64,000 nucleotides of DNA. Source: Kiritimatiellia bacterium. Lineage in GTDB: Bacteria > Verrucomicrobiota > Kiritimatiellia > RFP12 > UBA1067. Both the position numbers and the translations under genes were made by a program. The notes beneath the pieces are model-generated. The model worked only from the letters and a program-made list of their open reading frames with translations. It was not told where the DNA came from and made no database searches. The stretch spans positions 20,401 through 84,400 of the forward strand of contig JAFRDO010000010.1 in the NCBI GenBank assembly GCA_017403825.1, read 5' to 3'. Positions within the stretch are counted from its first letter, which is position 1; each line of letters opens with the position of its first letter. This document shows positions 6,377-33,869 of the stretch, one piece after another.

Positions 6377-8818
6377 ATGAACATCAAGAGCATAGTGGTT
6401 GCGGCTTCGCTGATGGCGCTTTGCGCTTCTGCTTCCGACGTATCCTACCCTTACGCCTCGGGCGATACGTCGCTTGGCGATGGTGCCGTGGTCCTTACCT
6501 ACGAGGAAGGAACGACCGACGTCAAGACGCTGACGGCGACTCCGACAGATGGCGGCACGGTCTCGATCACGGGCGACGCGATGACGTTTGCCGACGACGC
6601 GGCGATCACGCTGTCCACCTCCGGAACGGTCTCCTTCGCCAGCATGGTGACGACGCTTGGCAAACTCTCCCTTTCCCGCAGCGATGGAGCGTATGTCGTC
6701 TGGACGGGAAAGGCGCTCACGCCATCTACAACGGCCTCAGGTGTTGAAGTGTTTGCGGGACTTAACCGTGATACTGATCTTGAGCATTCGTCCATCGTTT
6801 TTGTCGGTGGTGCCGACGGCCCTTGCCCTGGGCGTTTTCACTACGTGAGCGGCCCAAGTAGTGGCATCTATACGCTGAATAATGTCAGACCGGACTATAC
6901 CTATTCCATTCGTCCTCAATTGAGTGGAAATTCACCCATTACGGGCGTCCGCTGTATAACAGGTTCACGTTCGCAACAGTTCGTGGAATATCCAGACGGT
7001 TCGCTATGGAACAGCAAAGGCGCGGAACATTACTGCGGAGAGAGCCAGGCAGTGCCAGGTGGCACGCGGATTGGAAACACATCTGACCTCAAGCTTACAA
7101 AGATAATCGTCCGAAAAAAAGGAATGTCGGAAAAGGTTTGGGTGCGTTTTGACGGCGGTGTGGCGCTGGGCGGCGAAACGTCCGTAGGCGCTGGCGTCGA
7201 GGCTGTGATAGGGGCGTCCGAGGGCGATGGTGCGGTAACGCTTGCCTGTCCGATCACAGGGAATGGCGATGTCCGCATCGCCACGTCTACAGCGACAACG
7301 GCTTTTGCCGGTACGTCGTATTTCGAGCCGTTCATCAACACGTCATGGCAGATTCTTGCTACAAATCGTTCGCTTTCGGCTCTTACGAGCCTTTCCGCAC
7401 ACATGTTGGGCGGAAGCCACAATTATGTTGCGTATGCTGACGTTGGCGGCACGCCAACCGATGCCTATTACATCAAGTACAACCCAGATTCCAACACCGC
7501 CACCTGCCAGTTCCAGTATTGGACAGGAAGTGGGCTCAAATTTGTTAAAGCCCAGCTTCGGCAGAATGGAGTAAATGTAGAGATCAAGGGCGTTGCCGCA
7601 GGATATTACACCAACAGTCAGTACAACTACAACAACAATGAGCCCCATGATTTTGACAATGATTCCAACAACGCTAATTTTGCAACGTCTGCGACGGCAT
7701 CAGGATATGGTATCCATTATATCACAGCCACGTTTGCTGGGGCGACGGGTATGGGTGTCGCGAGGCTTGAAAGTACGATGAACGCTATGTTCGGTAGCAT
7801 ATTGACCTTTGATGGAAGCAATGGCCCATTGCATGTAACCGTCACCAACCAGAACGCTTTCCCCATCTGCGGCGTGGTGAACGTCGGCACGAATGCAGAC
7901 GTGGCGTTGCGGGTAAAAGGATTGGGTCTTACATCGGGCGTTTCAGGAGGCACAAGCAAGATTGTCGTCCAGCGAGGCGGCATTTTGAGCCGTGGTGGCG
8001 GAGCGAATGGCCAGATTGGAACCTATCAGGATTTTGTCCTTGACGGTGGAACGTATGAAAGCATCGACTATAATGTTTATCAGAGCTACATCACTTTGAT
8101 GAATGGGGCTCACATGATAGGTGCTTCACCTCCGAGGACGGTGTACAGCTATTCCCCGCAATATTGGAGGGTGAGAGGCACAAGCCCTTCATTTATCGAC
8201 AATGGGATTAACATTTATGGCTCAGGTACTGCAAGCGGTGGAGAGTCAAAAAGATTCAGGATTGACGTTGCGGATGTCACAGGCGATGATGATGTTGATT
8301 GCACAGTTTCAAAGATATTTCATAACGATGGCAATCAGCAGCGTTTTTCGTATTTCAGGTTCGAGAAGTTGGGCGCAGGCACCATGCTTCTTGCAGGCTC
8401 TGGTTTGGCAGTGAAGCTGGAAACGTTTGTCAGCGGCGGTACGTTCCTTCTTGGGGCGAGCGGGATTGCGACAAACGAGTTTGTGCTGTGCGGCGGTAAC
8501 CTTGCGGTGGCGGCGAACGTCACCAACAACATTGGTGCGCTCACGGTGAGCAACGCCTGCACGATTGCGGTCGGCACGGGCGGGTCGCTCTCGTTCGCGT
8601 CGTTCACGGCGGATGAAGGACTTCAGCCGAAAGCAATCACGATCGATGCGCCGTTGGAAGGCAATGTCATCAAGTTCGACACTACTCTTACGGACGAGGA
8701 GCGCAACTTATTCCGCTGGAAGGATAGCGCGGCGCCGACGGGCGCAAGGCGCGTCGATCAGGACGCGAACGGCTACCTGCATCCGCACTCCGGTGGAATG
8801 TTGATCTTTATAAAGTAG
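6377..8818 (+). CDS. Large secreted protein with autotransporter-associated beta-strand (PATR-like) repeats, paralog 1
   Basis: An AGGAGA RBS precedes the signal peptide MNIKSIVVAASLMALCASA. The body is Gly/Thr-rich beta-helix-like sequence with 'GAGTxxL.G' repeats. The N-terminal ~100 aa and the C-terminal ~60 aa are shared with 16466..18499. Confidence 0.6.
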   Translation: MNIKSIVVAASLMALCASASDVSYPYASGDTSLGDGAVVLTYEEGTTDVKTLTATPTDGGTVSITGDAMTFADDAAITLSTSGTVSFASMVTTLGKLSLSRSDGAYVVWTGKALTPSTTASGVEVFAGLNRDTDLEHSSIVFVGGADGPCPGRFHYVSGPSSGIYTLNNVRPDYTYSIRPQLSGNSPITGVRCITGSRSQQFVEYPDGSLWNSKGAEHYCGESQAVPGGTRIGNTSDLKLTKIIVRKKGMSEKVWVRFDGGVALGGETSVGAGVEAVIGASEGDGAVTLACPITGNGDVRIATSTATTAFAGTSYFEPFINTSWQILATNRSLSALTSLSAHMLGGSHNYVAYADVGGTPTDAYYIKYNPDSNTATCQFQYWTGSGLKFVKAQLRQNGVNVEIKGVAAGYYTNSQYNYNNNEPHDFDNDSNNANFATSATASGYGIHYITATFAGATGMGVARLESTMNAMFGSILTFDGSNGPLHVTVTNQNAFPICGVVNVGTNADVALRVKGLGLTSGVSGGTSKIVVQRGGILSRGGGANGQIGTYQDFVLDGGTYESIDYNVYQSYITLMNGAHMIGASPPRTVYSYSPQYWRVRGTSPSFIDNGINIYGSGTASGGESKRFRIDVADVTGDDDVDCTVSKIFHNDGNQQRFSYFRFEKLGAGTMLLAGSGLAVKLETFVSGGTFLLGASGIATNEFVLCGGNLAVAANVTNNIGALTVSNACTIAVGTGGSLSFASFTADEGLQPKAITIDAPLEGNVIKFDTTLTDEERNLFRWKDSAAPTGARRVDQDANGYLHPHSGGMLIFIK

Positions 8819-11332: not shown

Positions 11333-12545
11333 CGTGTCAAAACCCCTGCTCATATCTGCAGTCGCCATGTCGTTGCCCTGCCTGGCGATCGGCGGGCATC
11401 TGACGTTTGACGAGCCTGCCCCCGGACGCGATTCGGGGCGCATATACTATTATGTCCCCGACGGGCTTGACCTTTCCCGCCCTGCGCCGCTGCTGGTGTT
11501 CCTTCACGGCGGCGGCATCGCGTCCACCGATTCCACGCCCGGCAGCTACTTCAGCGAAGAGCGGCGCGCCCTGATGCCGGATGTCACGAATGCACCGTTC
11601 ATCGTGGCGGCGCCGTCCGCACCGGTCACCGGCGACAGTTCCCGCTGGAACCATGCCGGGACATCTAAGCTCATCGATGCCACGATCGCCGCCGCCAGCC
11701 GGAAGTTCCGCATTGACCAAGACCGCATTTTCCTAGGCGGACATTCGATGGGTTGCTACGGGGCGTGCCATCTCGGGCAGATACTTGCCGACAGGTTCGC
11801 CGGCGTGTGGCTGAGTTCAGGCGCATGGTGGGAGGCGGACTTCCGGGCGTTCTGGGGAACGCCGGTCTATATTCAGCATGGCGCGCTTGACTGCTCGCCG
11901 CGTCCCGGCTATTCCGGCACGCACAAGAGACCTCGCCGCCACCACTGGTGCGGAGTGAGCTTTGCCAGGTGCGCACATGACCTGATGACCCGTCATGGCG
12001 TGGAGCATGTCTACGACGAACACTCGGAAGGCCATTCGCTCGCGTTCCCTGCGGCTAAGGCGGCCATGCGGCGGTTCTTTGCCTGGGCGAAAGACAAGCG
12101 ACGCAATCCATACGCGAAGAAGGTGGCTTTGGTCACGCCATGCGGCACGAAGCATCCTGATCTTGAGCAGGCCTCGAAGTCGCGTTGGCTAGAACTTGCG
12201 GAAAGGTCTGCCGGCGAGATCGAAGTCGATGGCATCGAGCTGTACGGGCCGCCAATCGCCAAGACGGATGACGATCTCACGCGTCAGACCTATTCGCCTG
12301 TCAGACGGCGGTGGAACGACGGCGCGCGCATCATCGCCGAGAATCTCGGCGGAAACCACTTCAAGGTCGAGACCGAGAATGTGAAGCAATTCCTCATCTA
12401 CCTCTCCCCGCAGATGGGCGATCTCTCCAGGCCGTTCACGGTTGATCTTGGTACGGACGGAATCCGCACGATAGTCGCAGAGCCGATTTCTCCCAATGGC
12501 GACTATTCCGCTCGTCTTTCGGTCGTGGTGAAGGAAGGTTCATGA
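11295..12545 (+). CDS. Alpha/beta-fold esterase (GHSMG nucleophile elbow)
   Basis: It has 'LLVFLHGGG' and the 'GGHSMGCYGA' GxSxG motif. The true start may be the internal ATG at 11367, which avoids overlap with the upstream gene. Confidence 0.6.
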   Translation: MTITMPLAHTWTDVSKPLLISAVAMSLPCLAIGGHLTFDEPAPGRDSGRIYYYVPDGLDLSRPAPLLVFLHGGGIASTDSTPGSYFSEERRALMPDVTNAPFIVAAPSAPVTGDSSRWNHAGTSKLIDATIAAASRKFRIDQDRIFLGGHSMGCYGACHLGQILADRFAGVWLSSGAWWEADFRAFWGTPVYIQHGALDCSPRPGYSGTHKRPRRHHWCGVSFARCAHDLMTRHGVEHVYDEHSEGHSLAFPAAKAAMRRFFAWAKDKRRNPYAKKVALVTPCGTKHPDLEQASKSRWLELAERSAGEIEVDGIELYGPPIAKTDDDLTRQTYSPVRRRWNDGARIIAENLGGNHFKVETENVKQFLIYLSPQMGDLSRPFTVDLGTDGIRTIVAEPISPNGDYSARLSVVVKEGS

Positions 12546-13645
12546 ACTCCGGCAGGCTGCGATCGCTCGATGCCCTGCGGGGGTTTGACATGATCTGGAT
12601 TCTCGGTCTGGAGCAGGTCATGCGCGGCTTCTGCAAACTGTTCCCTGGCGGATCGGACTGGTGGTTCGAGCACCAGTTCCATCATGTGGAATGGGAGGGG
12701 CTGGCGTTCTACGACACTATCTTTCCACTGTTCGTGTTCATTGCCGGCGTGAGCTTTCCGTTCTCCTACGCGAAGCAGGTGGAGCGCGGGGATTCGCCTC
12801 TGCGCATCCATGCGCGGATATTCCGCCGCGCGTCGGCCCTGATTCTGCTCGGCATGGTGTATAACGGAATCCTCGCCTTCAACTTCACGGACTTCCGCTA
12901 TGCGAGCGTGTTGGGCAAGATCGGCATCGCCTGGATGGTGGCCGCGCTGTGGTATGTCCATTTCGGGGTTAACGCCAGGCTTGCGATATGCGGCGCAACG
13001 CTCGTGGGCTACTGGGCGCTTCTGCAGCTGACTGCGCCTGACGCACCGGCTGGCTTTGGGCCGTTCACGCCAGAGGGGTGCTTCCCTGGCTATCTTGACA
13101 GGTTGGGCTTCACGCCCGGCCAGTTCTACATCCCCGGACTGCTGGAACCGTCCGGAATACCCGTATCGCTCTTCGGTTCGGCCACTGCCATGATGGGCAT
13201 GTTCGCGGGCGACCTTCTGCGCTCGGGACGCGACTCTCTCACGGCTGAGCGCAAGGTTCTGTATCTTGCGCTTTCCGGGCTGGCGGTGGGGCTTGCCGGA
13301 TGGGGCGTCTCGTTCAGCTGTCCGATCATAAAGAAGCTCTGGACGCCAAGCTTCATGCTTGTGGTAGGCGGATATTCGTTCATGATTCTGGCGCTGTTCT
13401 ACTGGATCATTGACGTGCTGCATCATGACCGCTGGTGCTTTTTCCTGCAGGTTGTCGGAGTGAACTCGATAACGATCTACATGCTTAGGCGCATTGTAGG
13501 CTACCGGCAGATTTCGCAGTTCCTGTTTGGCGGCGTGGCGTCATGGTTCCCGAGCCCGGAGCTTGTCGAGTCCGCGGGAATCGTGCTGCTATGCTGGTTG
13601 ACTTGCTGGTTTCTTGACCGGCATCGGGTATATCTGAAAGTATAA
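12542..13645 (+). CDS. Polytopic membrane protein of the HGSNAT-like acyltransferase family (heparan-alpha-glucosaminide N-acetyltransferase-like, DUF1624/DUF5009 type)
   Basis: The ATGA start overlaps the preceding stop. The N-terminus 'RLRSLDALRGFDMIWILG' is characteristic of this family, and multiple TM helices are present. Confidence 0.55.
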   Translation: MNSGRLRSLDALRGFDMIWILGLEQVMRGFCKLFPGGSDWWFEHQFHHVEWEGLAFYDTIFPLFVFIAGVSFPFSYAKQVERGDSPLRIHARIFRRASALILLGMVYNGILAFNFTDFRYASVLGKIGIAWMVAALWYVHFGVNARLAICGATLVGYWALLQLTAPDAPAGFGPFTPEGCFPGYLDRLGFTPGQFYIPGLLEPSGIPVSLFGSATAMMGMFAGDLLRSGRDSLTAERKVLYLALSGLAVGLAGWGVSFSCPIIKKLWTPSFMLVVGGYSFMILALFYWIIDVLHHDRWCFFLQVVGVNSITIYMLRRIVGYRQISQFLFGGVASWFPSPELVESAGIVLLCWLTCWFLDRHRVYLKV

Positions 13646-14697: not shown

Positions 14698-15918
14698 TCA
14701 CGACTCCCCTTTCGTCCGTCTGCCGCGTTGCGCACAACGGTTCTTCCTCCGCCAGGCTTCTGGAGGCATCCCCTTTTCTTCGGAGAACGAGCGCGAGAAG
14801 TATTCCTGAGAAGCAAACCCGCATTTCTCGGCGATGCGCATGACGGGCAGTTCGCTCTTGAGCAGAAGCTGGCACGCCGCTTCAAGGCGCGAGGCGGCGA
14901 TCGTCTGCTGAACCGTCCGATTCAACACCTTGCGGAAGGCTGCGTCCACGGCTGTGTGGGAGCGGTTCAAGTATGCATAGACCTCAAACGCGGACAAGCG
15001 GTCCGCCACATGGTTCTTTATGAAGATGAGAGCATCGGACAGCCACGGCGGATCGATGGGATAGACGTTAGTGGACGCCCGTTCGACGATGCCCTTGGGA
15101 TCGACCTGCCTCACGATCTGCCTTTTGGCGACTGCGGGGTTGTTGATGACCTCCATTAGCGTGCGAATGGCCTCGCGGCCGATCTCGACGGTGTCCGGAT
15201 CAATGCTGGAGATGGTCGGCTTGGAGAATCCGCACACGATCACGTCGTTGTCCAGTCCGAGGATCGCCACCTCGTGCGGAACGTCAATCCCGCAGTCAAG
15301 ACACACGTGGAGCAGCTGCCATGCCCGCAGGTCGTTCGGGCAGAAGACGGCGATCGGCTTCGGCAGCTTCTTCACCCAGCGGGTCAGGGCCTTTGCGTCA
15401 GGCGCGCGGTTCAGGCGCTCGTTGATGAGCACCGACGAATCGAAGTCGTACCGCACCTGCACCGGCGGCTCGTAGCAGTGGCATCTGTGGCCTTCTGCGG
15501 ACAACGCACGGCAGAACGCCTGTCTGCTGTAGTCTGAAAACCTGCCGCCCGAGAATCCACAGAAACCGAAGGTGGAAAACCTCCTATCGATGAAATGCCC
15601 TGCAGCCAGGCTCCCAAGCTTGGCATGATTTGTCTTTACGACGGCAAAACCCGGTCTAGGCTTTTCGTAATAGACGTCAACCACCGGCTTCCCGCTCGCG
15701 GCAAGACGCTTTGCGATAGTGTCGTTCATCACGCGGGCGATGAAGCCGTCGAACTTCGAGAGAACGGACGGTTCCTTAAGGGACTTTGGATCGACGAAGA
15801 ACGGCGCAAGCCTTTCATGCTCCTGCGCATAGGCGGTGATGCCGGCGCACAGGTCGCGCCCAAAGGCACGCGTCAGCTCGACAAGAACCCCGATCTTTGT
15901 CTCTGAAACCGGCTTCAT
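14698..15918 (-). CDS. AraC/XylR-type transcriptional regulator with a periplasmic-binding-protein-like sugar-sensor domain and a C-terminal AraC HTH
   Basis: An N-terminal LacI/PBP-like fold ('IGVLVE...', 'DGFIA') is followed by the C-terminal AraC signature ('LSDALIFIKNHVADRLSAFEV...SQEYFSRSF'). The start is ATG at 15916-15918. Confidence 0.8.
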   Translation of the reverse strand: MKPVSETKIGVLVELTRAFGRDLCAGITAYAQEHERLAPFFVDPKSLKEPSVLSKFDGFIARVMNDTIAKRLAASGKPVVDVYYEKPRPGFAVVKTNHAKLGSLAAGHFIDRRFSTFGFCGFSGGRFSDYSRQAFCRALSAEGHRCHCYEPPVQVRYDFDSSVLINERLNRAPDAKALTRWVKKLPKPIAVFCPNDLRAWQLLHVCLDCGIDVPHEVAILGLDNDVIVCGFSKPTISSIDPDTVEIGREAIRTLMEVINNPAVAKRQIVRQVDPKGIVERASTNVYPIDPPWLSDALIFIKNHVADRLSAFEVYAYLNRSHTAVDAAFRKVLNRTVQQTIAASRLEAACQLLLKSELPVMRIAEKCGFASQEYFSRSFSEEKGMPPEAWRRKNRCAQRGRRTKGES

Positions 15919-15949
15919 GCCGGTTAGTATATCACAGGATCGGCTTGCC

Positions 15950-16014
15950 TTGCAATAATTACAACCTATGTTGCAAAGTTTACATTTTGCAACGACGACG
16001 CGGTTTGATATACT
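15950..16014 (+). promoter_or_regulatory. Putative sigma70-type promoter and TTGCAA direct-repeat operator array upstream of the ASRT-like gene
   Basis: Three TTGCAA hexamers lie at 15950, 15971 and 15987. The last can serve as a -35 element, with a 16-nt spacer to TATACT at 16009-16014. The ATG is at 16056. Confidence 0.35.
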
Positions 16015-16055
16015 GCCTGTGTATCGCGGACAAGCCAGACACGGAGGGTGAAACT

Positions 16056-16415
16056 ATGGAGATAGGAAAGAAAACATGGGTCTTTTCGGACGGCGACCTG
16101 CCGCCACCAGGAGACACCGAGCCTTTCGGGCACGAGGCCCTTATGGTCGTGAACAACGGCGAGAGAGAGGCCACCATCAAGGTGACAATCCTATTCGACG
16201 ACAAGGACCCCAAGGAAGGCATCACGTTGCACGTGCCGCCGCGCCGCGTGAACTGCTTCCGCATGGACATGCCGCTCGGCGACGAGAAGTTCCAGCTCGG
16301 GCCCGGCCAGACCGCAACGATTCTCGAATCGGACATTCCGATCGTGGCCGTGTACGGGCGGCTCGACCGCCGTAAGGACATAGCCTACTATCCTGTCCAG
16401 GGCTACTCCTGCTAA
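16056..16415 (+). CDS. Sensory-rhodopsin-transducer-like (ASRT family) small soluble protein
   Basis: A GGAGGGTG RBS precedes the ATG at 16056. The 119-aa product is collinear with my recollection of ASRT/TM1070-type proteins ('W....G.LPPPG..EP...HE...V.N.GE.EA...VTI.FDDK.P..G..L.VP.RR' and 'S.IPIV...RLD'). The annotated track ORF starts earlier at 15897, but that N-terminus lacks an RBS. Confidence 0.55.
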   Translation: MEIGKKTWVFSDGDLPPPGDTEPFGHEALMVVNNGEREATIKVTILFDDKDPKEGITLHVPPRRVNCFRMDMPLGDEKFQLGPGQTATILESDIPIVAVYGRLDRRKDIAYYPVQGYSC

Positions 16416-16465: not shown

Positions 16466-18499
16466 ATGAACATCAAAAGCATACTGATCGCGACCTCGCT
16501 GATGGCGCTTGGCGCTTCGGCGGCCGATGTGTCCTACCCCTACACACCAGGCAACACCAACCCCGGCGCGGGCGTGACAATCGCCTTCGACGGCGACAAC
16601 AACATCACGTCGATTTCGGCGACGCCGACGGACGGCGGCTCGATTACCCTAACCGGCGGCGCTCCGACATTCGCAGCCGGCGCAACGATTACAGTGAATG
16701 CCCCGGGTTCGCTCGTGTTCACCGGACCGGCGACGGCGAATGGTGCGCTCGCCATAAACCGTGGTGACGACGCATACCTTGCCTGGTCGTCCGACACGGC
16801 CTTGAACGGCACTCTTACGGAGAGTCCGTGCTTTACCGGCCTATCCAGCACCGATCGCGATGAAGGAAGAATCGAGTTTTTCAGGCTTGTCTCGACAGGC
16901 CCTACAGACGACAATAACGTTTTCGGCCAACAGGGGCATTGGAATCTGATTACCTATACAGGATCCGGAATCTTTCAGTTCAACAAGGTATCGGCCGCTT
17001 ATGCGTTCACTGCCCGCGTTCAGCTCGGCCCTAAAACGTCCGGCGAGAACAATCTGTACGCTCGTTGCCTCAACGCCATCCGCTCGCCACGTTTCGGCCT
17101 TTACCCCGATGAAGAGGCTGGATGGGCGACGCTCAACATGTATAATGCGTGGAGCGGGAAAGCCCATCATACCGAACGCGGGCGGTATAACATCACAGAT
17201 TCTTACGGCACGGGTCTGGGTTCGACGGAGAACCTTGGCTTCCGGAAGATAATCATACGCCGCACAACCGTTCCCAACGGCCCGGTGTCTGTTCGTTTCA
17301 ATGGTGGCGCAACGCTTGGCTCAGAAACCACGATTGGCGCGGGGCTTGAGGCGGTGTTTGTGGCGACGGCCACCGATGCCGTTTCGCTTGGAAGTGCAAT
17401 TTCCGGCGATGGAGACCTCAGAATCGAGACGGCGTCGTCCGACGCGACTACGACGCTTGACTGTGATATGTCGGGCCTTGTCGGCGGAAAATTCACCATC
17501 GAGGGAAAAGACAACGCTATCCACACGGTCATGCGGACTGCAGACACGAAGTTTCCATCTGGTGGCGAAGTGCATATCAACACCAACGCCATCCTCACCC
17601 TCTATGGCAACACGGTAAGCACAAGTTATGCCTGGAAGCAGTCGCTGTTCGTGCATCGCGGTGGAACGCTGAAGACTATAGACAAGACCTGGCAAATCAG
17701 GCCCAAGCAGCAGATTATGCTCGATGGCGGTACATTCAACGTCCGCAACGGAGTGTTCTACCTCAACTACCTGGTTCTTTCAAATGCAACCATGAACGGC
17801 ACATCATCGCCGCGCTCGGTTTACAATGAATCGTCCGGGCAGTACTGGCGGGTGATAGGCACCGAGCCTTCGTATCTGACAAGTACGTATGGTGTTAACG
17901 TTTATGGGGCCTCCAGCAAGAGTTCCGCCGTCCCGTTCAGATTAGATGTCGGGGATGTGGCGGATGGAGTCGATTGCTTCATGAGTCGCATTACTTGTGA
18001 CACGGGCGGTACGAACGTTCCGTGGTTCTGGTTCGAAAAATATGGAGCGGGCACACTTAAGATTTCCGAGAATTCGAAGGGCGTGCGCATGGAGTCGAGG
18101 ATTTACAACGGAACTCTGCTATTGGCAGGAAACAGTATCATGACGAACGAGGTGCAACTGTTGGGCGGTAATTTCGCGATAGATGCAGGAAAGTCCAACG
18201 CCCTCGGAAACCTCACGGCGACCACCAATGCAACGCTCACGGTTGGGGCGGGTGGTTCTCTGTCGTTCGCGTCATTCACGCCGGGTGCGGGTCTGGCAGA
18301 GAAATCAATTGTCATTGACGCGCCGATGGAAGGGAATCTCGTTAGAATTGGCACGAACGGCAACGGTCTTGCGGCAGAGCATTGCAAATACTTCCGCTGG
18401 AAGGACGCTACGGACGCGACAAAACTCTGGCGCGTGGAGCAGGATGCTGACGGATATCTACATCCATCGATAAAGGGCGTAGTGATACTCGTTTATTGA
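16466..18499 (+). CDS. Large secreted PATR-repeat protein, paralog 2
   Basis: It has the signal peptide MNIKSILIATSLMALGASA. Its N- and C-terminal modules are shared with 6377..8818, including the terminal 'FRWKD...D.DGYLHP' followed by a hydrophobic strand. Confidence 0.6.
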   Translation: MNIKSILIATSLMALGASAADVSYPYTPGNTNPGAGVTIAFDGDNNITSISATPTDGGSITLTGGAPTFAAGATITVNAPGSLVFTGPATANGALAINRGDDAYLAWSSDTALNGTLTESPCFTGLSSTDRDEGRIEFFRLVSTGPTDDNNVFGQQGHWNLITYTGSGIFQFNKVSAAYAFTARVQLGPKTSGENNLYARCLNAIRSPRFGLYPDEEAGWATLNMYNAWSGKAHHTERGRYNITDSYGTGLGSTENLGFRKIIIRRTTVPNGPVSVRFNGGATLGSETTIGAGLEAVFVATATDAVSLGSAISGDGDLRIETASSDATTTLDCDMSGLVGGKFTIEGKDNAIHTVMRTADTKFPSGGEVHINTNAILTLYGNTVSTSYAWKQSLFVHRGGTLKTIDKTWQIRPKQQIMLDGGTFNVRNGVFYLNYLVLSNATMNGTSSPRSVYNESSGQYWRVIGTEPSYLTSTYGVNVYGASSKSSAVPFRLDVGDVADGVDCFMSRITCDTGGTNVPWFWFEKYGAGTLKISENSKGVRMESRIYNGTLLLAGNSIMTNEVQLLGGNFAIDAGKSNALGNLTATTNATLTVGAGGSLSFASFTPGAGLAEKSIVIDAPMEGNLVRIGTNGNGLAAEHCKYFRWKDATDATKLWRVEQDADGYLHPSIKGVVILVY

Positions 18500-18533: not shown

Positions 18534-20051
18534 ATGAAAATACTTGTAGGAGCGTTTCAGTGCGAATCGAACACGTTCTCTGCCGCAAAGGCGGGGAAGG
18601 AAAACTTCTACATCCTGCACGGCGAAGAGGCGAAGCAGAAGCTTTTCGCGTCCCATCTCTTTGAGGAAGCAGGGTTTGAAGTCGTGCCGCTCGTCTATGC
18701 CGTAAGCCTGCCGTCCGGCATGGTGACGCGAGAGTGTTTCGACGAGGTGCTGGCCGACTTCCGCGCCGAAGCCGCAAAGCATCCAGACGCCGACGGCGTG
18801 TACCTCTATCTGCACGGCGCGATGTACGTGGAGGGACTTGGAAGCGGCGAGGAGTGGACGGTGAAGGAACTTCGCAAGACCGTCGGCGATGCGATTCCCA
18901 TCACGCTCGCGCTCGACTTCCACGGCAACCTGTCGGACGGGCTCGTGCCGCTCGTGCAGGGTATCGCCGGCTACCGCACCGCTCCGCACACCGACTACGA
19001 CGACACCGAGCGCCGCGCCGCCGAAGCGCTGATGCGGATTCTCAACCCGGAACCCGAAACCCTCAACCCGGAACCCATCCGTCCCCACTTCTTCCGCATC
19101 CGCGTGCAGTTCGCCGACGCCGCGCAGACGTCAATCGAGCCGTACGTCTCGGTGCTGCGGATGATCCGCGAGCTGGACGCCGACCCGCGCGTCGTGACGG
19201 CGTCCGTCTTCAACGGCCAACCGTGGGTAGATGCACCGTTCATGTCGGCGTCGATCGTCGTCTATTCGGCGTCCGGCCACGACGAGATCCACGCCAAGGC
19301 CAAGGCCGTCGCGGACTACTTTGACGCGCATAAGACCGACCTCACCTTCGGCGTGCCTGCGGTCGCGCCGGAAGACGTGGCGGAAGCCGTCCGCACGATG
19401 GCAAAGCCCGTCTTCGTGAGCGACTCCGGCGACAATACCACGGCAGGCGCGGCAGGCGAAAGCGACTGCCTCGTAAACGTCTTTCGCGGAACGGGACTTA
19501 AGACGCTTTTCACTTCGCTGTACGACCAGGACGCCGTGGCGAAATACGCCGGTAGCGCCGTGGGGCGCGGCAGGATTCTCGGCTTTGTCGGCGAAGATGC
19601 CGGAGAAGGCATTGTCGTGCGGGAAGGCAACGTTGACATCGTCTATTCGACCGTCCGCACCTCCTTCACGATGAAGGAACACTTCGTGGCGATGGGGCTG
19701 AATCCGGCGGACTATGACGTGGTGGTAGTGAAGCAGGGCTACCTCTGGCCCGGCGCGGCATCGCTCGCCGCCTCGCAAGTCTTCTGCATGACCCCCGGCA
19801 CTGCAACCAACGACTTCTCGACTTTGCCTTTCAAGCATCTTGAAGGCGACTACTACTACGTAAAACCAACCACAACCCCCAATCCTCCTTCGCTGAAGCT
19901 ACGGAGGATAAACCCCCAACCCCTAATCCCTAACCCCCAACAACCATGTCCTACTACAACAAAGAAGAGTCCAACAAGCGCATTGCCGCCGTTCAGGCAA
20001 TCCTTGAAAAGAAGAACCTTGACGCCGCGCTCGTCTATTTCGACGAGCTGA
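18534..20051 (+). CDS. M81 family metallopeptidase (MlrC / microcystinase C-like, DUF1485+DUF1446)
   Basis: The N-terminus 'ILVGAFQCESNTFS' matches the MlrC 'hETNtF' signature, and the length fits. The last ~40 codons are Pro-rich and overlap the next gene, so the true 3' end is uncertain. Confidence 0.7.
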   Translation: MKILVGAFQCESNTFSAAKAGKENFYILHGEEAKQKLFASHLFEEAGFEVVPLVYAVSLPSGMVTRECFDEVLADFRAEAAKHPDADGVYLYLHGAMYVEGLGSGEEWTVKELRKTVGDAIPITLALDFHGNLSDGLVPLVQGIAGYRTAPHTDYDDTERRAAEALMRILNPEPETLNPEPIRPHFFRIRVQFADAAQTSIEPYVSVLRMIRELDADPRVVTASVFNGQPWVDAPFMSASIVVYSASGHDEIHAKAKAVADYFDAHKTDLTFGVPAVAPEDVAEAVRTMAKPVFVSDSGDNTTAGAAGESDCLVNVFRGTGLKTLFTSLYDQDAVAKYAGSAVGRGRILGFVGEDAGEGIVVREGNVDIVYSTVRTSFTMKEHFVAMGLNPADYDVVVVKQGYLWPGAASLAASQVFCMTPGTATNDFSTLPFKHLEGDYYYVKPTTTPNPPSLKLRRINPQPLIPNPQQPCPTTTKKSPTSALPPFRQSLKRRTLTPRSSISTS

Positions 20052-21118
20052 ACGTCGCAAACGGATGGTACCTCACCGGCTGGTGCGGGCAGTTCGAGAA
20101 AGGCTCGGTGTTCGTGCCGCGCAAAGGCGAGCCGTGGCTTCTCGGCGGACCGGAGTCGGAGCCGTTCGCGTTGCAGTCTTCGGCCGTTACGAAGATTCGC
20201 TGCTTCCCGGTGTTCATGGTGCCTGAGGAGGAGTACCCCAACGCGCACATCATCGGCTTTGCCGACCTCTACAAGGAGATGTCGGAGATGGGGCTGCCCT
20301 TGAAGCGCATCGGCGTCGTCGGCACGAACACGATTCCGCACCAGGTCTACCTCGATTTCCAGGCCGGCTTTGCGGGCGTGGAGCTCGTGGACATCACGGG
20401 CGACTACGAAGCCATGCGCGCCTACAAGAGCGACTGGGAGCGCGAGAACATGCTGAAGGCCGTCGGGCTCTGCGACCTCGCATACGATGCGATGAAGGCG
20501 AAGATCGTTCCAGGAGCGTTCGAGTATGAGGTCGCCGCCGCCGGAGAAGCGGTGTGCCGCGCGAATGGCGCGACGAACTTCGCGTACTCCACGATCGTCG
20601 GCTCCGGCGAGCGCGCCAACGCCGTCGTCCCGACGGCTACGAACCGCCAGATGCAGCCGGGCGAACTGGTCATGATAGGCATCGCGCCGCGCTTCAACGG
20701 CTACGCCGGAACGTTCGGCGACACGCTTCCCGTGAGCGGCGAGTACACCGCCGACCAGAAGGAGTGCATGAAGCATCTCCGCGAAGTGATGCACCTTACG
20801 AAGGCCATGCTGAAGCCGGGAGTGAGCGGCAAGGAGATCGACGTGCCGGGACGCGAATACTACAAGAAGCACGACCTCTTCAAGTACCTCGTCTGCCCGT
20901 TCGCGCACACGATCGGACTCATGGAGGCGGAACTTCCGTTCTACGGGCCGAACTCCGAGGACGTCCTCGCCCCCGGCATGACGGTGATGGTCGACGTGAG
21001 CTTCTTCGGGCACCCGAAGTTCAACGGCGCGCGCATCGAGACGGGCTACATCATCACCGACACCGGCTGCAAGCCGATGTCGCCGAAGATGGACGCTTAC
21101 TTCGCGCAGTCCCTGTAA
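19946..21118 (+). CDS. M24 family metallopeptidase (Xaa-Pro aminopeptidase / creatinase-like)
   Basis: A creatinase-like N-domain is followed by a pita-bread fold with metal-ligand-like blocks ('VMIGIAPRFNGYAG', 'HTIGLMEAE', 'VMVDVSF'). Confidence 0.8.
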   Translation: MSYYNKEESNKRIAAVQAILEKKNLDAALVYFDELNVANGWYLTGWCGQFEKGSVFVPRKGEPWLLGGPESEPFALQSSAVTKIRCFPVFMVPEEEYPNAHIIGFADLYKEMSEMGLPLKRIGVVGTNTIPHQVYLDFQAGFAGVELVDITGDYEAMRAYKSDWERENMLKAVGLCDLAYDAMKAKIVPGAFEYEVAAAGEAVCRANGATNFAYSTIVGSGERANAVVPTATNRQMQPGELVMIGIAPRFNGYAGTFGDTLPVSGEYTADQKECMKHLREVMHLTKAMLKPGVSGKEIDVPGREYYKKHDLFKYLVCPFAHTIGLMEAELPFYGPNSEDVLAPGMTVMVDVSFFGHPKFNGARIETGYIITDTGCKPMSPKMDAYFAQSL

Positions 21119-22803
21119 CGATCGACCTCGACGCTGAAGACAAGTTCGTGCGACTGGCCTGGGGCTAGCTCAAGCGCGCCTTCCTTCGTCCGGCAGCTCG
21201 GCCCCAGGCCGATGAAACGCTCGGTGTCGCCGGCGTCAAGGTTGCGGTTGTGCGGCTCGACATTCCCCGGCGACCACACGACGACGCCGGTGTTGCCGCT
21301 GGCGTGCATGCGCAGTTCACGCCCCGCCCCCGCATCGACAAGGGCGAAAGCGTCGCTGCGACGGGGGAACGCGGCGTCCATGCCGCCGACCGCCGCAAAG
21401 TCGTTCTCCTTCACTCCGCGCAGCGTCACCGCGCCATAGCGACTTACCGCAAAGTACGGCTGGATGCCCTCGGAAAACGAAAACGGACGGTCCCCCGTGT
21501 TCTTCGTGCGCATCGTCATTTCAAGGCGGCTTGTCATGCGCAAGGTCAGCTCAAGGTCGGCGGCATACGGGAAATCCGGATCCTCGCCGGCGGCAAGCGA
21601 GAGCCCCAACGTGACGGACGACCCTCCGGCCTCATTGGGATCGCGATGCCGCACGGCAAGTCTGCGGTTGCGGGCTAAGCCGTGGATTGAGCTGGCCTTG
21701 TCCCCCTTCTTGCCGAACCACGGCCAGCAAACCGATATCCCGCCATGAGACCAGTCGCCGTCGGCAGATTCGGTCCGCCGGGGCATGAAGAGCAGTTCCT
21801 CTCCGGCAGGAGTCTTCCACGAGAGAATGCGTCCGCCTTGAAGATCGATGACTGCACGCCCGCCAGGGCCGACGACATCAACCGTGCGGGACGGCGCTGT
21901 CGGCGACATTTTGACATCTCCGCAAAAGCCCATCTGCACGAGCCAGTCCCAGAGGAGCGGACGCCACGCGAGGAATTTTCCCATAATCGCGCCTTTGGAC
22001 TTGAAGTCATGGTCGCGCTTCGCGAACACGTGAAGGTCGCACGGAACGTGCATCGCGTGCAGCCGTGAATAGACCTTTACGCTCCCCATGGGCGAGATTA
22101 CATCGGCATCGCCGTGCATGAAGAACACGGGACATGTCGCAGAGTCAAACTTGAACTCGGGGAGTATGACATCCTCGGCGAGGTCGCCGCCATGGGTGTT
22201 CGCGCTGTTCACGCCGTCGGACAGCACATACGCCGGATACGCAGGCGCCGCAAAGGCGATATTGCAGGGCAGAGAGTCGATTTCATCGATAGGCTCGTAG
22301 GTGCCGGTCTGCGAGGAAAGCGCCATCAGAAGCGCAAGGTGTCCGGCGGCGGAATAGCCGAAGAAGCCGATCTTGTCCGGGCTGACACCGTGCGCCGCCG
22401 CGCCGTGGCGCACGAGCCGGACGGCCCTTTGCGCATCCTGCCATGCCGTGACGTGCTTCGCGACCTTCTTCGGGCGCGGCGTCCTGTGGTGCAGGCGCAC
22501 GACCGTCATCCCCTTCTCAAGCAGCCAGTCGCGGAATCCCCCTCCCATCGACCCATTCGGCACCCAGTTGCAGATGCCGTATCCTCCGCCGCACGTCACG
22601 ATCATCACGGCGTCGGTGGTCTTGTTGGAAGGCACGAACCACTCGATGAACGGCTCGTTGTACTGATTCTCCTCAAGGGACGGCACCTTGCCCTCCGGCC
22701 AGAGAGCTATGCGCTCGCCCTCCGGATCTCCCGCTAAAGGGTCCGTAGCAGCCATTGCACCCGCCGCGAACGACGCGACGACACAGGCCGAAACAAAACT
22801 CAT
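21097..22803 (-). CDS. Secreted bifunctional-looking protein: N-terminal alpha/beta-hydrolase esterase (GYSAAGH) fused to a C-terminal hexose-6-phosphate mutarotase / aldose-1-epimerase-like domain
   Basis: The start was chosen at the ATG at 22803, which has an AGAAGGG RBS and a clean signal peptide (MSFVSACVVASFAAGAMA); the ORF extends to 22833. The esterase GxSxG and an 'HGDAD' block are followed by a YeaD-like 'CWPWFG...HGLARN' motif. Confidence 0.65.
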   Translation of the reverse strand: MSFVSACVVASFAAGAMAATDPLAGDPEGERIALWPEGKVPSLEENQYNEPFIEWFVPSNKTTDAVMIVTCGGGYGICNWVPNGSMGGGFRDWLLEKGMTVVRLHHRTPRPKKVAKHVTAWQDAQRAVRLVRHGAAAHGVSPDKIGFFGYSAAGHLALLMALSSQTGTYEPIDEIDSLPCNIAFAAPAYPAYVLSDGVNSANTHGGDLAEDVILPEFKFDSATCPVFFMHGDADVISPMGSVKVYSRLHAMHVPCDLHVFAKRDHDFKSKGAIMGKFLAWRPLLWDWLVQMGFCGDVKMSPTAPSRTVDVVGPGGRAVIDLQGGRILSWKTPAGEELLFMPRRTESADGDWSHGGISVCWPWFGKKGDKASSIHGLARNRRLAVRHRDPNEAGGSSVTLGLSLAAGEDPDFPYAADLELTLRMTSRLEMTMRTKNTGDRPFSFSEGIQPYFAVSRYGAVTLRGVKENDFAAVGGMDAAFPRRSDAFALVDAGAGRELRMHASGNTGVVVWSPGNVEPHNRNLDAGDTERFIGLGPSCRTKEGALELAPGQSHELVFSVEVDRYRDCAK

Positions 22804-23245
22804 GCATGCCCTTCTTTCGATCATCATTGCCAACCCTTTCTTCTAGTTGTTGTCTACGGAGATTATAACACACTTCGCCGCATCATCGCGCAAAGAGAAT
22901 ATCATTCAAGAAACGAGACTATAGCGACTAACGGGACTTCCAAGACAATCGGGACTTCCGAGACTTGCCCGCCGAAGCCTTGGCGAAAGCGGGTCCCGTT
23001 TGTCCTGGCCGTCCCGAATGTCCCGAAAAGCTCGCATTTCTTGTCATGCGCATATTGTACCATTTTTCAGACGATTTACGGGCGCAACGAGCACATCTAC
23101 TCTTTTAGGCGTCACCGTGCAATGATTTTATTTGCATTTGCAAAATTTACAGTATGAGAGGCGGGTGATATTTGGTATCATATAACCATAAGAATGGACA
23201 TGCACTTATGAAAAACACGATGCAATCGGAAGGAGTCGGATTCCT

Positions 23246-26200
23246 GTGAAGAAACTGGCGGTAATGATGGCTGCGCTTGGCGCGCTAGCGGCGATTGCCG
23301 ACGGCGGTGGCGCCGCTGCAAAGGACAATGTGGAGCTGCTGCCTTCAGCCTTCGACGGCAAGACGCCTGTCGTCGTCGAGACCGATGCGTTCAGGCTCGT
23401 CATCAATCCAGATGCGACGGCGCAGTCGCTTGTCATCAAGGCGACAGGCGAGGAATGCCTGGCGTCCAAGGCGGGGCTGCCAGTGTTCGCATCCGTCCAG
23501 AAGCGTCCGTTCAACAACGAGACGCGCCTGGTGCAGATGGCCAAGCGCACGATGTACCCCGCCAACCGCATCAGGCGCGACGGCGACATCTTGCGCATCG
23601 GGTTCGACACCGCGCCCTACGAGGTGGAGGTACGCGTCCGGGAGCGGGCAGGCTACGCCGCGTTCGAGCTCGTGCGGCTGATCTCCAACACCGTGCAGGA
23701 GAAGCAGTACGGAGGACTGGAGCCGTGGCAGATGGACGTGCCGCCAGTCGAGGAGTTCAGGCTCCTCCAGCTGCCGGTCATCGAGCGCAAGAACTTCGGC
23801 GACTGGCTGAACGTGGAGTGGGACGACCGTGCGGCGGTGGCAGTGGTCGGTGCGACGCCCTACATGGACGTGGATCACGAGAAGCGCGGCGACTGGCGGC
23901 TGCTGCGTGCGGACGCGCTCTCCGGCATCGGCCACGGCATCACGAACGGCGTTGCGGCAATCGCCGCCGGAGCCAGCAAGGATGAGCTCCTCGCGCAGAT
24001 CGAGGCGATGGAGAACGACTATGACCTGCCGCGCGGTGTCGCAAGCCGCCGCAATCCCCTTCTCAACGCCTCCATCTACTGGACGAGCGACATCTCCGTA
24101 CACAACGTCGACGAGCATGTCGCCAACATGAAGAAGGGCGGCTTCCGCATGGCGCTCCTCTACTATTCCGGCATGTTCCTGAACGGACACGCCTACACGA
24201 ACTACGGTGACTACGATCTCAATCCCGAACGTTTCCCAAACGGCTACGACGACCTCAAGGTCGTTCTGGCGAAGATCAAGGCCGCCGGCGTCACGCCCGG
24301 CTTCCACACGCTCCAAACCTTCATCGGCTTCAAAAGCCGCTACGTGACGCCGGAAGCCGATCCGCGACTCAACGTGAAGCGGTATTTTGCACTGGAACGG
24401 CCCTTGCCTGGCGATGGCGCAACTTGCGACGTATATGTGGCGCAGAACCCGGTCGATGCGCCGATGCACCCGAAGTGCCGCGTACTCAAGTTCGGCACGG
24501 AGCTGATGCATTACGAAAGCTACACCACAACGCCTCCTTACAGGTTCACCGGCGTGGAACGCGGCTACTTAGGCACGACCGTCAAGTCGCACGGGCGCGG
24601 CGACGGCGGCGGCATCCTTGACGTGTGCGAATGCACGGCTACAAGCTGCTGCATCGACCAGAACACGTCCCTTCAGGACGAGATCGCCGAGAAGATCGCG
24701 AAGGTCTACGACTGCGGCATGGAGTTCCTCTACTTCGACGGCTCCGAGGACGTGAACGTGCCCTGCAACGTGAACATCTCCCTTTCGCAGTGGAAGGTTG
24801 CCAAACATTGCGGGAAGATGCCGCTTTTCACAGAAGGCTGCGCGAAGACGCACTTCGGCTGGCATCTCCAGAGCGGAGCGAACGCCTTTGACGTGTTCCC
24901 ACCGGAGGTGTTCAAGGAGAAAATCATCGAATATCCGTACAAGGCGGCGCAGCGTCTGGCGAAGGATTTTACTCGTGTCGATTTCGGGTGGTGGGGAATC
25001 CGCGCCAAGGGTCCGAAAAGCGTAGGCACGCAACCTGACATGTGGGAATACGGCACGTCCAAGGCGGCAGCGTTCGACTGTCCGGCGACGATGCAGATGA
25101 ACCTTCACCGCATCCATGCGAACGGACGCATGGACGATCTCTTCGAGACCGTACGACGCTGGGAGGACGTGCGTGCGCGGAAGTGGCTCACGCCGGAGCA
25201 GAAGGAAATGCTGAAGGATCCGAAGCGCGAGTTCCACCTCTACCTGAATGATAAGGGCCAATATGAACTGGTAGAATGGAATCAGCTTGACGTGGCCGGC
25301 GGCAAGTGGACGGACGTGCGGGCCTTCATTTTCGAGCGCAACGGACGACGCGTCGTCGCCTACTGGCATGTTCACGACCGCGCACGCCTCGTCTTCGCCG
25401 AGCCGCTGGACGGCACGGAGTTCCTCGATGCCTCCGGCGTGAAGTATTTCGAGACATCGCTTCCGGCCGAGACCGTCCGCGCCGCCTTCGCCTCCGCCGC
25501 GGTTCATGGAATTCCCACTGACCGACGCATCGAGATATACGGCTTTTTTGATGACAATGACGGACACATCCAGGGGATGTGCACCGACGGAGAATTCATC
25601 TACCTCACCCAACAGAGCTGGATATACAAAGTCGACCGCCAAGGCAAGCTGGTGCGCAAGATAAAGACGCCAAAGCACACCGGCGACGTCTGCTTTCACG
25701 ACGGGCGGATATACGCTTCGAGCATCCACTACTACGGCGAGTATCGCGGGCATGGCATCATAAGGGTTTATGACACCGACCTGAATCTCCTGAAGGAGAA
25801 GATGCTTGAGAAGTGCGGCCTTGACGGCATCACGTGGCTCGACGGCTACCTCTACGTCGGCGGCGGAGCGCACAAGCCGACCATCCCGCACAAGCCGGGA
25901 GAGGCGCCGGAAACGAAGACTCCTCACTTCGACAACAATCTGTTCAAGGTCGATCCGAACACGCTTGAAATCGTCGAGCGCTATGTGCTGAACCACGGCA
26001 CGAAGACATGCTATGGGATTCAGAACGCGACGACGGACGGAAAACTCCTCTACTTCTGCTACTACGTGCCCGGACGTAACATCCCCAACTGCATCGTCTA
26101 TGACAAGAACATGCACGTCGTGCGGACCCTGACGTTCGAGGCTGGCAAGGGCTCAGATTTCGGACAGGGCTTTGACTTCGTCGGCGCCGTCCCGGGCGGG

Positions 26201-28318: not shown

Positions 28319-28395
28319 TATACTTCGGCATAGATAATAACGATTGGACTTGTAAATTGAGAAGTGACGAACGAGGATTAACTCTTCGCCTTGCG

Positions 28396-33825: not shown

Positions 33826-33869
33826 CTAGTTCTCCAGCTCAATATAACTCGCATAAAAGGAACATATCA

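Follow-up and report, generated by a model that had tools for sequence, protein, structure and literature searches.

The DNA considered here is a 64,000-nucleotide stretch (the window) from a Kiritimatiellia bacterium (assembly GCA_017403825.1, contig JAFRDO010000010.1, positions 20,401 to 84,400), in which a short gene at 16056..16415 encodes a protein of the ASRT/TM1070 family and opens an operon that also encodes an M24-like "pita-bread" protein with an altered set of metal ligands. The genes for these two proteins keep company across several bacterial phyla. The operon follows a conserved pair of direct repeats, beyond which a XylR-type regulator gene is divergently transcribed. From these sequence features, we read the locus as a XylR-type-controlled operon in which the ASRT protein would be the small-molecule-binding partner of an M24-like hydrolase, an interpretation that we hold with about as much doubt as belief.

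An ASRT-family protein and its M24-like neighbor

The two proteins on which this interpretation turns are encoded as follows.

16056..16415, plus strand: ASRT-family protein of 119 residues, "HEALM" subtype, first gene of the operon (PF07100, PDB sequence matches, AlphaFold2/Foldseek)
19946..21118, plus strand: M24 "pita-bread" protein of 390 residues (Creatinase_N, 9e-10; Peptidase_M24, 9e-34)

The ASRT gene runs from an ATG at 16056 to a TAA stop codon at 16413-16415 (119 codons), with a GGAGG at 16043-16047, 8 nt ahead of the start. The original prediction had given exactly these coordinates for a 119-residue open reading frame (ORF) and had assigned it to the ASRT/TM1070 fold family, naming a PF07100 profile search and a comparison with the TM1070 structure as checks; both were run, and the assignment is borne out. 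The Pfam profile PF07100 (ASRT) matches with 71.4 bits (cutoff 25, E = 8e-20), residues 3-108 aligning with profile positions 1-108 of 119. Sequence matches in the PDB are to 2II7 (Anabaena ASRT, 5e-13) and 1NC7 (TM1070, 1e-7), at ∼30% identity to the solved family proteins. A monomer model built with AlphaFold2 (AF2) on 36 homologues (predicted local distance difference test score, pLDDT, 88) is an eight-stranded β-sandwich matching that of 1NC7/2II7, with Foldseek TM-scores of 0.81 to 1NC7 and 0.75 to 2II7; the top 19 Foldseek entries are all 1NC7 or 2II7-2IIA chains (TM-score 0.65-0.82), and the next has E ∼1e-2. Because profile, PDB sequence match, and structural neighbors of the model agree, family membership is established, and the window protein is a genuine ASRT/TM1070 family member. 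It has 225 close homologues, the nearest of them in Kiritimatiellia.

The family was described by De Souza, Iyer and Aravind in 2009, who defined a strand-2 signature, SHEshChhN, predicted a sugar pocket from TM1070, and located ASRT-type proteins in sugar-related loci of rhodopsin-less bacteria (PMC2739507). The window protein carries the family marks, with W8 as the strand-1 Trp and N33 as the Asn at the end of strand 2, the sole invariant column of the family-wide alignment; H26-E27 is nearly invariant across the family as well. Its strand-2 signature reads GHEALMVVN, in which His, Glu, and Asn are kept and the Cys is replaced by Met. This replacement at a predicted ligand-contact position is present in all 36 aligned members of the HEALM subfamily, and Met, Leu, Ile, or Val also stands there in many other family members; judged from these alignments, it marks an ASRT subtype and is compatible with family membership. 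Further polar residues are invariant within the subfamily (D12, D14, E22, H26, E27, R64, C67, R69, and D71), as are Q85, S92, R102, D104, R105, R106, Y111, and Y112. No rhodopsin domain was detected in the ORFs scanned between 50 and 40758 or in the called genes of related loci, and with a divergent regulator, the secreted protein P677, an M81 peptidase-family protein, and the M24-like protein as its neighbors, the window ASRT is most likely not a rhodopsin transducer in the functional sense.

The five metal-binding positions of Pyrococcus prolidase (D209, D220, H284, E313, and E327) were checked in the M24-like protein and in 75 orthologues. The window protein has G245, T256, H321, D350, and E365 at these positions. 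Among the orthologues, D209 is replaced by Gly in 74 of 75, D220 by Thr or Val, and E313 by Asp, with H284 and E327 kept; the altered set as a whole is held in 74 of the 75 and recurs in a second clade at 27-32% identity. The substrate-binding H280 and H291 of prolidase are likewise replaced, and the equivalent of Arg325 is conserved. By these alignments, the M24-like protein lacks both canonical aspartate metal ligands and is not a standard metallopeptidase. Creatinase likewise departs from the full five-ligand set and resembles it in this respect.

A census of 79 genome loci found with the ASRT alignment, in which homologues of window genes were counted within 10 kb, established how constant the gene pair is. 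An M24 homologue 59-91% identical to the window protein was present in 77 of the 79, followed by the ATPase of a CUT2 ABC transporter (47), M81 (45), the CUT2 ABC permease (45), and LacI (43); GH20b-like (15), RhaM-like (14), and XylR-type regulator genes (4) were rarer. An independent clustering of all neighboring ORFs returned the same ranking. The loci span Kiritimatiellia, several clostridial families, Spirochaetota, Limnocylindria, and one alphaproteobacterium, and in 57 of them the M24 gene ends 12-294 nt (mostly <60 nt) upstream of the ASRT gene. In the reverse direction, a metagenome scan seeded with M24 yielded 50 loci covered on both flanks, and 38 of them carry an ASRT gene within 4 kb. 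Related Kiritimatiellia loci have the order ASRT-M24-M81. Examples from farther afield include a Faecalicatena locus with a CUT2 ABC system, M81, GH20b-like, RhaM-like, M24, ASRT, and an MFS transporter, and a Diplocloster locus with two LacI genes, ASRT, a CUT2 ABC system, and M24. The binding proteins of such loci gave only generic ribose-binding-protein-like matches, too general to name the transported sugar.

More distant ASRT relatives were gathered by a profile search of 1.8 billion representatives, which returned 616. The P0133 subfamily (1322 proteins from Omnitrophota, Armatimonadota, Lentisphaerae, Acidobacteria, and Kiritimatiellae) is ∼34% identical to the window ASRT and has the HEALM motif. 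In three of five loci examined, an M24 gene lies directly upstream of the ASRT gene (gaps of 2-28 nt), and its product, 27-32% identical to the window M24, shows the same pattern of H/D/E ligand replacement. CE4 and PIG-L deacetylases are recurrent neighbors. The Cys-type subfamily, which resembles Anabaena ASRT and TM1070, comprises 664 proteins from Chloroflexota and Bacillota, and no M24 gene lay near ASRT in the three loci examined. Met or Cys at the predicted ligand-contact position thus appears to track the presence of an M24 partner, in a small sample (79 + 5 + 3 loci).

Several fusion proteins were recovered among the relatives, each being a single cluster representative for which a gene-calling artifact is possible. 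P0203 (447 residues) combines a LacI helix-turn-helix and binding domain with an ASRT domain devoid of the conserved His-Glu; P0121 (325 residues), from the closest subfamily, joins a maltose/galactoside-type O-acetyltransferase to ASRT; and P0147 and P0165 are tandem double ASRT proteins.

A conserved putative two-repeat operator between divergent promoters

Upstream of the ASRT gene, the regulator gene and the elements between the two start codons, as well as a second site downstream, are arranged as follows.

14698..15918, minus strand: XylR-type regulator of 406 residues, LacI/GalR-type sugar-binding domain and C-terminal AraC double helix-turn-helix (Pfam, 4FE4)
15926..15934, minus strand: extended -10 (TGATATACT) of the regulator's own promoter (promoter scan, conservation)
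15950..15963, plus strand: putative operator half-site 1 (TTGCAATAATTACA), whose TTGCAA, read on the minus strand, is the -35 for the regulator gene (alignments, pattern search)
15971..15984, plus strand: putative operator half-site 2 (TTGCAAAGTTTACA), 21 bp after half-site 1 and ending 2 bp before the -35 (alignment)
15987..15992, plus strand: -35 TTGCAA of the ASRT operon promoter, outside the conserved operator (promoter scan)
16006..16014, plus strand: extended -10 (TGATATACT) of the ASRT operon promoter (promoter scan; position of TGnTAnnnT kept in relatives)
23117..23151, plus strand: second copy of the two-repeat operator, site GTGCAATGATTTTATTTGCATTTGCAAAATTTACA (pattern search)
23173..23181, plus strand: extended -10 (TGGTATCAT) of a second promoter, 21 nt past the operator, with a weak -35, ATGAGA

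The regulator had been described beforehand as a divergent AraC/PBP-type protein, and its domains agree: Peripla_BP_3 (6.5e-30, residues 107-283) is followed by HTH_18 (2.6e-18, residues 316-392) and HTH_AraC (4e-8), and the protein matches Escherichia coli XylR (4FE4) end to end, residues 8-393 against 7-387 (E = 3e-27, 99 bits). This type of regulator accompanies ASRT only in Kiritimatiellia (4 of the 79 genome loci, plus L007-L009), LacI taking its place in other phyla; loci L001-L006 keep the operator and have no adjacent regulator.

The hexamer TTGCAA occurs at 15950, 15971, and 15987, and 16 nt past the third copy follows TATACT (16009-16014), preceded by TG. A consensus promoter scan called TTGCAA-16-TATACT on the plus strand and TTGCAA(15955)-18-TATACT(15926) on the minus strand, both with the TG, such that the same 9-mer, TGATATACT, is the -10 element of both divergent promoters on opposite strands. 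The first TTGCAA is palindromic and, read on the minus strand, therefore doubles as the regulator promoter's -35. The whole window holds 12 copies of TTGCAA, the number expected by chance. Three copies within 43 bp were seen in none of 1000 Markov simulations of the window and had P = 8e-5 with simulations trained on this very intergenic region. Weighing against an operator, some hexamer occurs at least three times in 6.6% of simulated regions of this kind, and for that reason the clustering alone is merely suggestive.

The real evidence for an operator is cross-species conservation, not hexamer clustering. The intergenic region was aligned with that of L026, which has no adjacent regulator, and with the corresponding regions of five further lineages whose XylR-type gene diverges from ASRT. 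In intergenic alignments A1 and A3, the TTGCAA of the first hexamer is invariant; GCAA...T.CA, at a fixed 21 bp past it, is kept in all aligned lineages; and the TTGnnn -35 and TGnTAnnnT extended -10 of the operon promoter are conserved. On the regulator side, AGTATATCA and its 7-8 nt spacing to the regulator start codon (CAT) are kept in five lineages. Half-sites at a 21-bp period are found in the window, L007/L011, L022-24, L025, and L026, and eight of them yield the 14-bp consensus TTGCAAAnnnTnCA. The third hexamer is not conserved; because relatives carry TTGATT or TTGAAA in its place, it is simply the -35. A loose two-repeat pattern was run on all 16 Kiritimatiellia loci with the operon and sufficient sequence ahead of it; each of the 16 has a single match, lying 50-120 bp upstream of ASRT, compared with 5 scattered matches in 74 other loci. 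As defined by these alignments, the predicted operator is a pair of 14-bp direct repeats with a 21-bp period, a 35-bp unit at 15950-15984 adjoining the -35. The original prediction had placed all three hexamers exactly and had recognized the third as a -35 lying 16 nt before TATACT; its AraC-type direct-repeat operator at a sigma70 promoter stands in kind, in the form of two conserved 14-bp repeats, and its three-hexamer array does not. A three-hexamer operator is rejected in favor of the two repeats, given that only these are conserved and the third copy varies.

The same elements could also be explained without any operator, as two back-to-back promoters with TTGCAA -35 boxes plus one chance copy. 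Two of the three hexamers are indeed -35 elements of divergent extended -10 promoters, and the simulation frequency given above favors a coincidence. Nevertheless, every lineage keeps the middle copy with its 3′ extension (GCAAAnnnTnCA) 21 bp from the first while the third copy varies, L026 and L001-6 retain both repeats without a divergent regulator promoter, and the two-repeat unit recurs at 23117, again without one. We regard this explanation as highly unlikely. Two contigs carrying the locus deserve a separate remark: L022, labeled Clostridium sp. CAG:138, and L023, labeled Limosilactobacillus gorillae, have a Kiritimatiellia-type locus with a 90% identical ASRT and the same regulator and operator, and are probably mis-binned in their metagenome-assembled genomes.

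Under the operator interpretation, a XylR-type activator carrying a sugar-derived inducer would bind the two TTGCAAAnnnTnCA repeats abutting the -35 of the extended -10 promoter and turn on the operon ASRT-P677-M81-M24. On account of the two-direct-repeat design, which is like that of E. coli XylR sites, the regulator is read as an activator that needs a sugar and acts on two or more promoters. It would probably also limit its own synthesis through half-site 1, since that half-site overlaps the -35 of the regulator promoter. The -10 of this promoter ends 7 nt before the ATG at 15918, which suggests that the regulator mRNA, with its transcription start placed from the promoter elements, is probably leaderless.

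The operator pattern has four matches in the window versus 0.24 expected, two of them inside coding sequence, where they look like chance. The copy at 23117, which stands at the same 21-nt distance from its extended -10 as the operator of the ASRT promoter, lies upstream of three giant ORFs (23246..28318, 28315..33825, and 33822..37187; 1690, 1836, and 1121 residues). The 1121-residue protein has NAGLU (GH89) and BNR domains, and the 1836-residue protein has a weak CBM11 match. The giant genes (23246..37187) probably belong to one regulon with the ASRT operon, and the operator copy would then control giant secreted glycan-degrading proteins at 23.2-37.2 kb.

The carbohydrate-utilization setting proposed earlier is supported by the genes around the operon. 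The window also encodes two GH20 proteins, a NagX-like acetyltransferase, esterases, the GH89/BNR protein, and SIS and PfkB proteins; together, these genes point to degradation of glycans containing N-acetylglucosamine (GlcNAc) or glucosamine (GlcN). In this GlcNAc/GlcN-type context, no xylose genes were found in the regulated units, and xylose is unlikely to be the inducer. The NagX-like gene (12542..13645) encodes a transmembrane glucosamine N-acetyltransferase-like protein (DUF5009) with an NCBIfam score of 252 bits, below the equivalog cutoff. It lies beyond the regulator gene, from which it is separated in the window by a 332-residue ORF without a family, and it adjoins the regulator in L009 (392-1492); its position supports the GlcN/GlcNAc theme.

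The role of the ASRT protein

As a predicted cytoplasmic β-sandwich, the window ASRT most likely binds a small sugar-type ligand and most likely works with the M24-like hydrolase on an imported, monosaccharide-sized compound. We favor partnership with M24 because the gene pair is strong, broad, tightly spaced, and recurrent in a distant subfamily, and because both the surrounding sugar-type transporters and regulators and the O-acetyltransferase and LacI fusions fit an accessory binding module. The compound is probably N-acylated or an amino-sugar/amino-acid conjugate, as indicated by the hexosaminidase-like and deacetylase neighbors and by the GlcNAc/GlcN context of the window. Substrate hints from individual loci, namely, imino acids (L079, L001-6), a rhamnose-type sugar (L098), and N-acetyl-sugar deacetylases (L181, L184, and L189), do not converge on one compound. 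The alphaproteobacterial locus L079 (4072-10149) has DAO, 2Fe-2S, Pyr_redox_2, and sarcosine-oxidase-A3-like subunits and a DHDPS-family gene, a set resembling D-hydroxyproline dehydrogenase or opine oxidase with pyrroline-carboxylate deaminase; the Kiritimatiellia loci L001-L006 (1419-4591) have a PFL-like glycyl-radical enzyme and its activase two genes upstream.

A bolder form of this proposal, which we consider doubtful, is that HEALM-type ASRT is an obligate subunit of a hitherto unrecognized two-component hydrolase. The β-sandwich would supply the sugar pocket, and the M24 protein, with only a His/Asp/Glu site where the two-metal center would be, the chemistry for cleaving a C–N bond in a small glyco-amino compound. 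As substrates, conjugates of the N-acyl or amino-sugar kind and glycosylated amino or imino acids are candidates.

A number of observations weigh against the partnership. The two genes are 3.5 kb apart in the window, not adjacent; in L021, an ASRT gene (10001-10357, product 90% identical) has no M24, M81, or regulator gene within 10 kb; ASRT was missing within 4 kb in 12 of the 50 M24-seeded loci; and two of the five P0133-subfamily loci have no M24 gene nearby. ASRT and M24 distance matrices correlate (r = 0.51-0.77) no better than those of other operon pairs, and none of the best 150 of the 616 representatives is an M24-ASRT fusion. The ligand-contact Cys of TM1070 is Met here, and the pocket may differ accordingly. 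The reported DNA binding of Anabaena ASRT (PMC8660804) offers another mechanism. On the side of regulation, the position of the operator would also suit repression of the divergent promoter. The L021 gene, in a rumen Kiritimatiellae genome, follows a GH95-like gene and precedes triosephosphate isomerase, and could be either an additional copy or a gene that has moved.

Alternatives for the ASRT protein itself are, in descending order of support, a small enzyme, a co-regulator, and a DNA-binding regulator. As a small enzyme (a sugar mutarotase, epimerase, or pyranase-type protein), it would catalyze a step beside those of M24 and M81. The many subfamily-invariant polar residues and the nearly family-wide H26-E27 would suit an active site, and TM1070 has an isomerase/aldolase/kinase neighborhood (PMC2739507). 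A Cys-type homologue on a Petroclostridium-type contig (L187, 4238-8841), among the three Cys-type loci examined, lies in a rhamnose/propanediol operon, LacI-rhamnulokinase-ASRT-RhaA-aldolase, between rhamnulokinase and rhamnose isomerase, a place often taken by the mutarotase RhaM; such a neighborhood is of the sort reported in the 2009 paper, and the position may offer a clue to what the TM1070-like subtype does. Yet 14 of the 79 loci encode a RhaM-like mutarotase in addition to ASRT, catalytic activity has never been reported for the family, and the LacI and acetyltransferase fusions better fit a binding module. On balance, we judge an enzymatic role for ASRT unlikely.

The original prediction had paired ASRT with the regulator in a sugar-responsive signaling or transducer module, and a related possibility is that ASRT senses a metabolite and modulates the XylR- or LacI-type regulator, or the ABC transporter, by protein contacts. 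Regulation through protein-protein contacts was proposed by De Souza et al. (PMC2739507), the ASRT gene adjoins the regulator gene and is first in the regulated operon, LacI and the CUT2 ATPase occur in 43 and 47 of the 79 loci, and P0203 is a natural LacI-ASRT fusion. The pairing is not supported by the census, in which the regulator changes between phyla (XylR-type, confined to Kiritimatiellia, in 4 of 79; LacI in 43 of 79) while M24 is the constant partner (77 of 79). Moreover, L001-L006 have the operator without an adjacent regulator, P0203 no longer has the conserved His-Glu in its ASRT domain, and regulators and transporters accompany any sugar operon and hence are not specific. A co-regulatory role therefore seems to us quite improbable, somewhat more so than an enzymatic one.

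Direct regulation of transcription by DNA binding is the least probable of the three, and we give it very little credence. Anabaena ASRT is reported to bind and loop DNA through contacts assigned to R109, Q110, and N113 (PMC8660804), and the C-terminal segment of the window protein that aligns with this region is a basic motif, RLDRRK, invariant in the subfamily. Nevertheless, the affinity of the Anabaena protein is weak (∼10 μM) and barely sequence-specific, random sequence being looped better than the promoter fragment (PMC8660804). The window ASRT is acidic (isoelectric point 4.95, net charge about -5 per monomer), its operon already has its own regulator and conserved operator, and the RLD motif is also kept in subfamilies of purely enzymatic contexts. 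Partnership with the M24-like protein thus remains our preferred account of the window ASRT.

Remaining genes and comparison with known systems

Two further genes of the operon and one beyond it complete the picture.

16466..18499, plus strand: secreted protein P677, 677 residues, without a family match (Pfam/NCBIfam scans, signal-like N-terminus)
18534..20051, plus strand: M81 (MlrC-like) peptidase-family protein (DUF1485, 3.8e-64; MlrC_C, 9e-21)
21097..22833, minus strand: fusion of an esterase (BD-FAE/α-β hydrolase) and an aldose 1-epimerase, convergent with the M24 gene and overlapping its end by 22 nt

P677 had been called a large secreted PATR protein. Its N-terminal sequence is signal-like, and profile support for the PATR repeat (PF12951/TIGR02601) is lacking, with no Pfam match at E ≤ 0.01 and no relevant NCBIfam match at E ≤ 0.1; by eye only, the stretch GAGTLKIS...NGTLLLAGN looks repeat-like. 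A paralogue at 6377..8818 (813 residues, 38-41% identical), likewise secreted, has a subthreshold NarE match and otherwise falls in no Pfam or NCBIfam family. The P677 gene is a lineage-specific insertion between the ASRT and peptidase-like genes, with no counterpart in related loci. The M81 ORF is ∼59 codons longer than all of its homologues (19872-20051); the tail is low-complexity, rich in Pro, Ser, and Thr, not conserved, and overlaps the conserved M24 start (19946) by 106 nt. The extension could reflect loss of the stop codon, a frameshift, or faulty assembly toward the 3′ end of the M81 gene.

Structures of ASRT-family proteins were solved in 2003-2007, and the family has no accepted function outside one cyanobacterium; the prior general proposal was only that of an intracellular sugar sensor acting via protein partners. 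The text and one supplementary file of the 2009 paper make no mention of an M24, creatinase, or peptidase partner (PMC2739507), and a full-text literature search returned no other paper linking ASRT and M24, and nothing on PF07100/DUF1362 outside Anabaena beyond De Souza 2009. The present analysis adds a concrete candidate partner, an M24-like protein whose metal site is degenerate and whose gene neighbors that of ASRT in Kiritimatiellia, Clostridia, Spirochaetota, Chloroflexota, Acidobacteria, and others, and an ASRT subtype defined by Met-for-Cys and this conserved partner. For a glycan-degradation region of Kiritimatiellia, it also defines, by sequence, a XylR-type operator together with two or more promoters predicted to be under its control.

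To our knowledge, gene regulation in the phylum of Kiritimatiellia is almost unstudied. If the two-component hydrolase were true, it would be the first biochemical function for the rhodopsin-independent majority of the ASRT family, and Anabaena ASRT and TM1070 would be atypical members. Current knowledge is not overturned; a long-unexplained family becomes experimentally tractable. Because hosts of the gene pair including Faecalicatena, Diplocloster, Christensenella, and Caproiciproducens are cultured, the ASRT-M24 question is directly testable.

Three known systems provide points of reference. The M24-like protein shares with Pyrococcus furiosus prolidase (1PV9) and aminopeptidase P the Creatinase_N and pita-bread domains, a length of ∼390 residues, and equivalents of His284, Glu327, and Arg325. 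It differs in having Gly and Thr/Val in place of the aspartates and Asp in place of Glu313, and in being encoded beside ASRT.

E. coli XylR sites span ∼37 bp and consist of two direct repeats beside the -35, with sugar required for binding (PMC3561964). The window regulator resembles this protein (4FE4/4FE7; IA/IF operators) in its two-domain architecture, in the ∼35-bp two-repeat operator upstream of the -35, and in having two operators for two units. The half-site differs, TTGCAAAnnnTnCA here versus gaAa-a-a-AAT, and the window operators lie 7.2 kb from each other, compared with 360 bp in E. coli. Furthermore, the window regulator gene is divergent, half-site 1 doubles as its own -35, and the similarity is distant (99 bits).

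Finally, Anabaena ASRT (2II7) and TM1070 (1NC7) share with the window ASRT a single-domain, eight-stranded β-sandwich (predicted for the window protein, TM-score 0.75-0.82) of ∼120 residues, the strand-1 Trp, the His-Glu...Asn of strand 2, the C-terminal RLD, and a cytoplasmic, stand-alone character. The window protein is set apart by the absence of a nearby rhodopsin, the HEALM Met for Cys, and an identity of only ∼30%. Its subfamily is distinguished by an M24-like neighbor, often joined by M81, which is absent from the three Cys-type loci examined.

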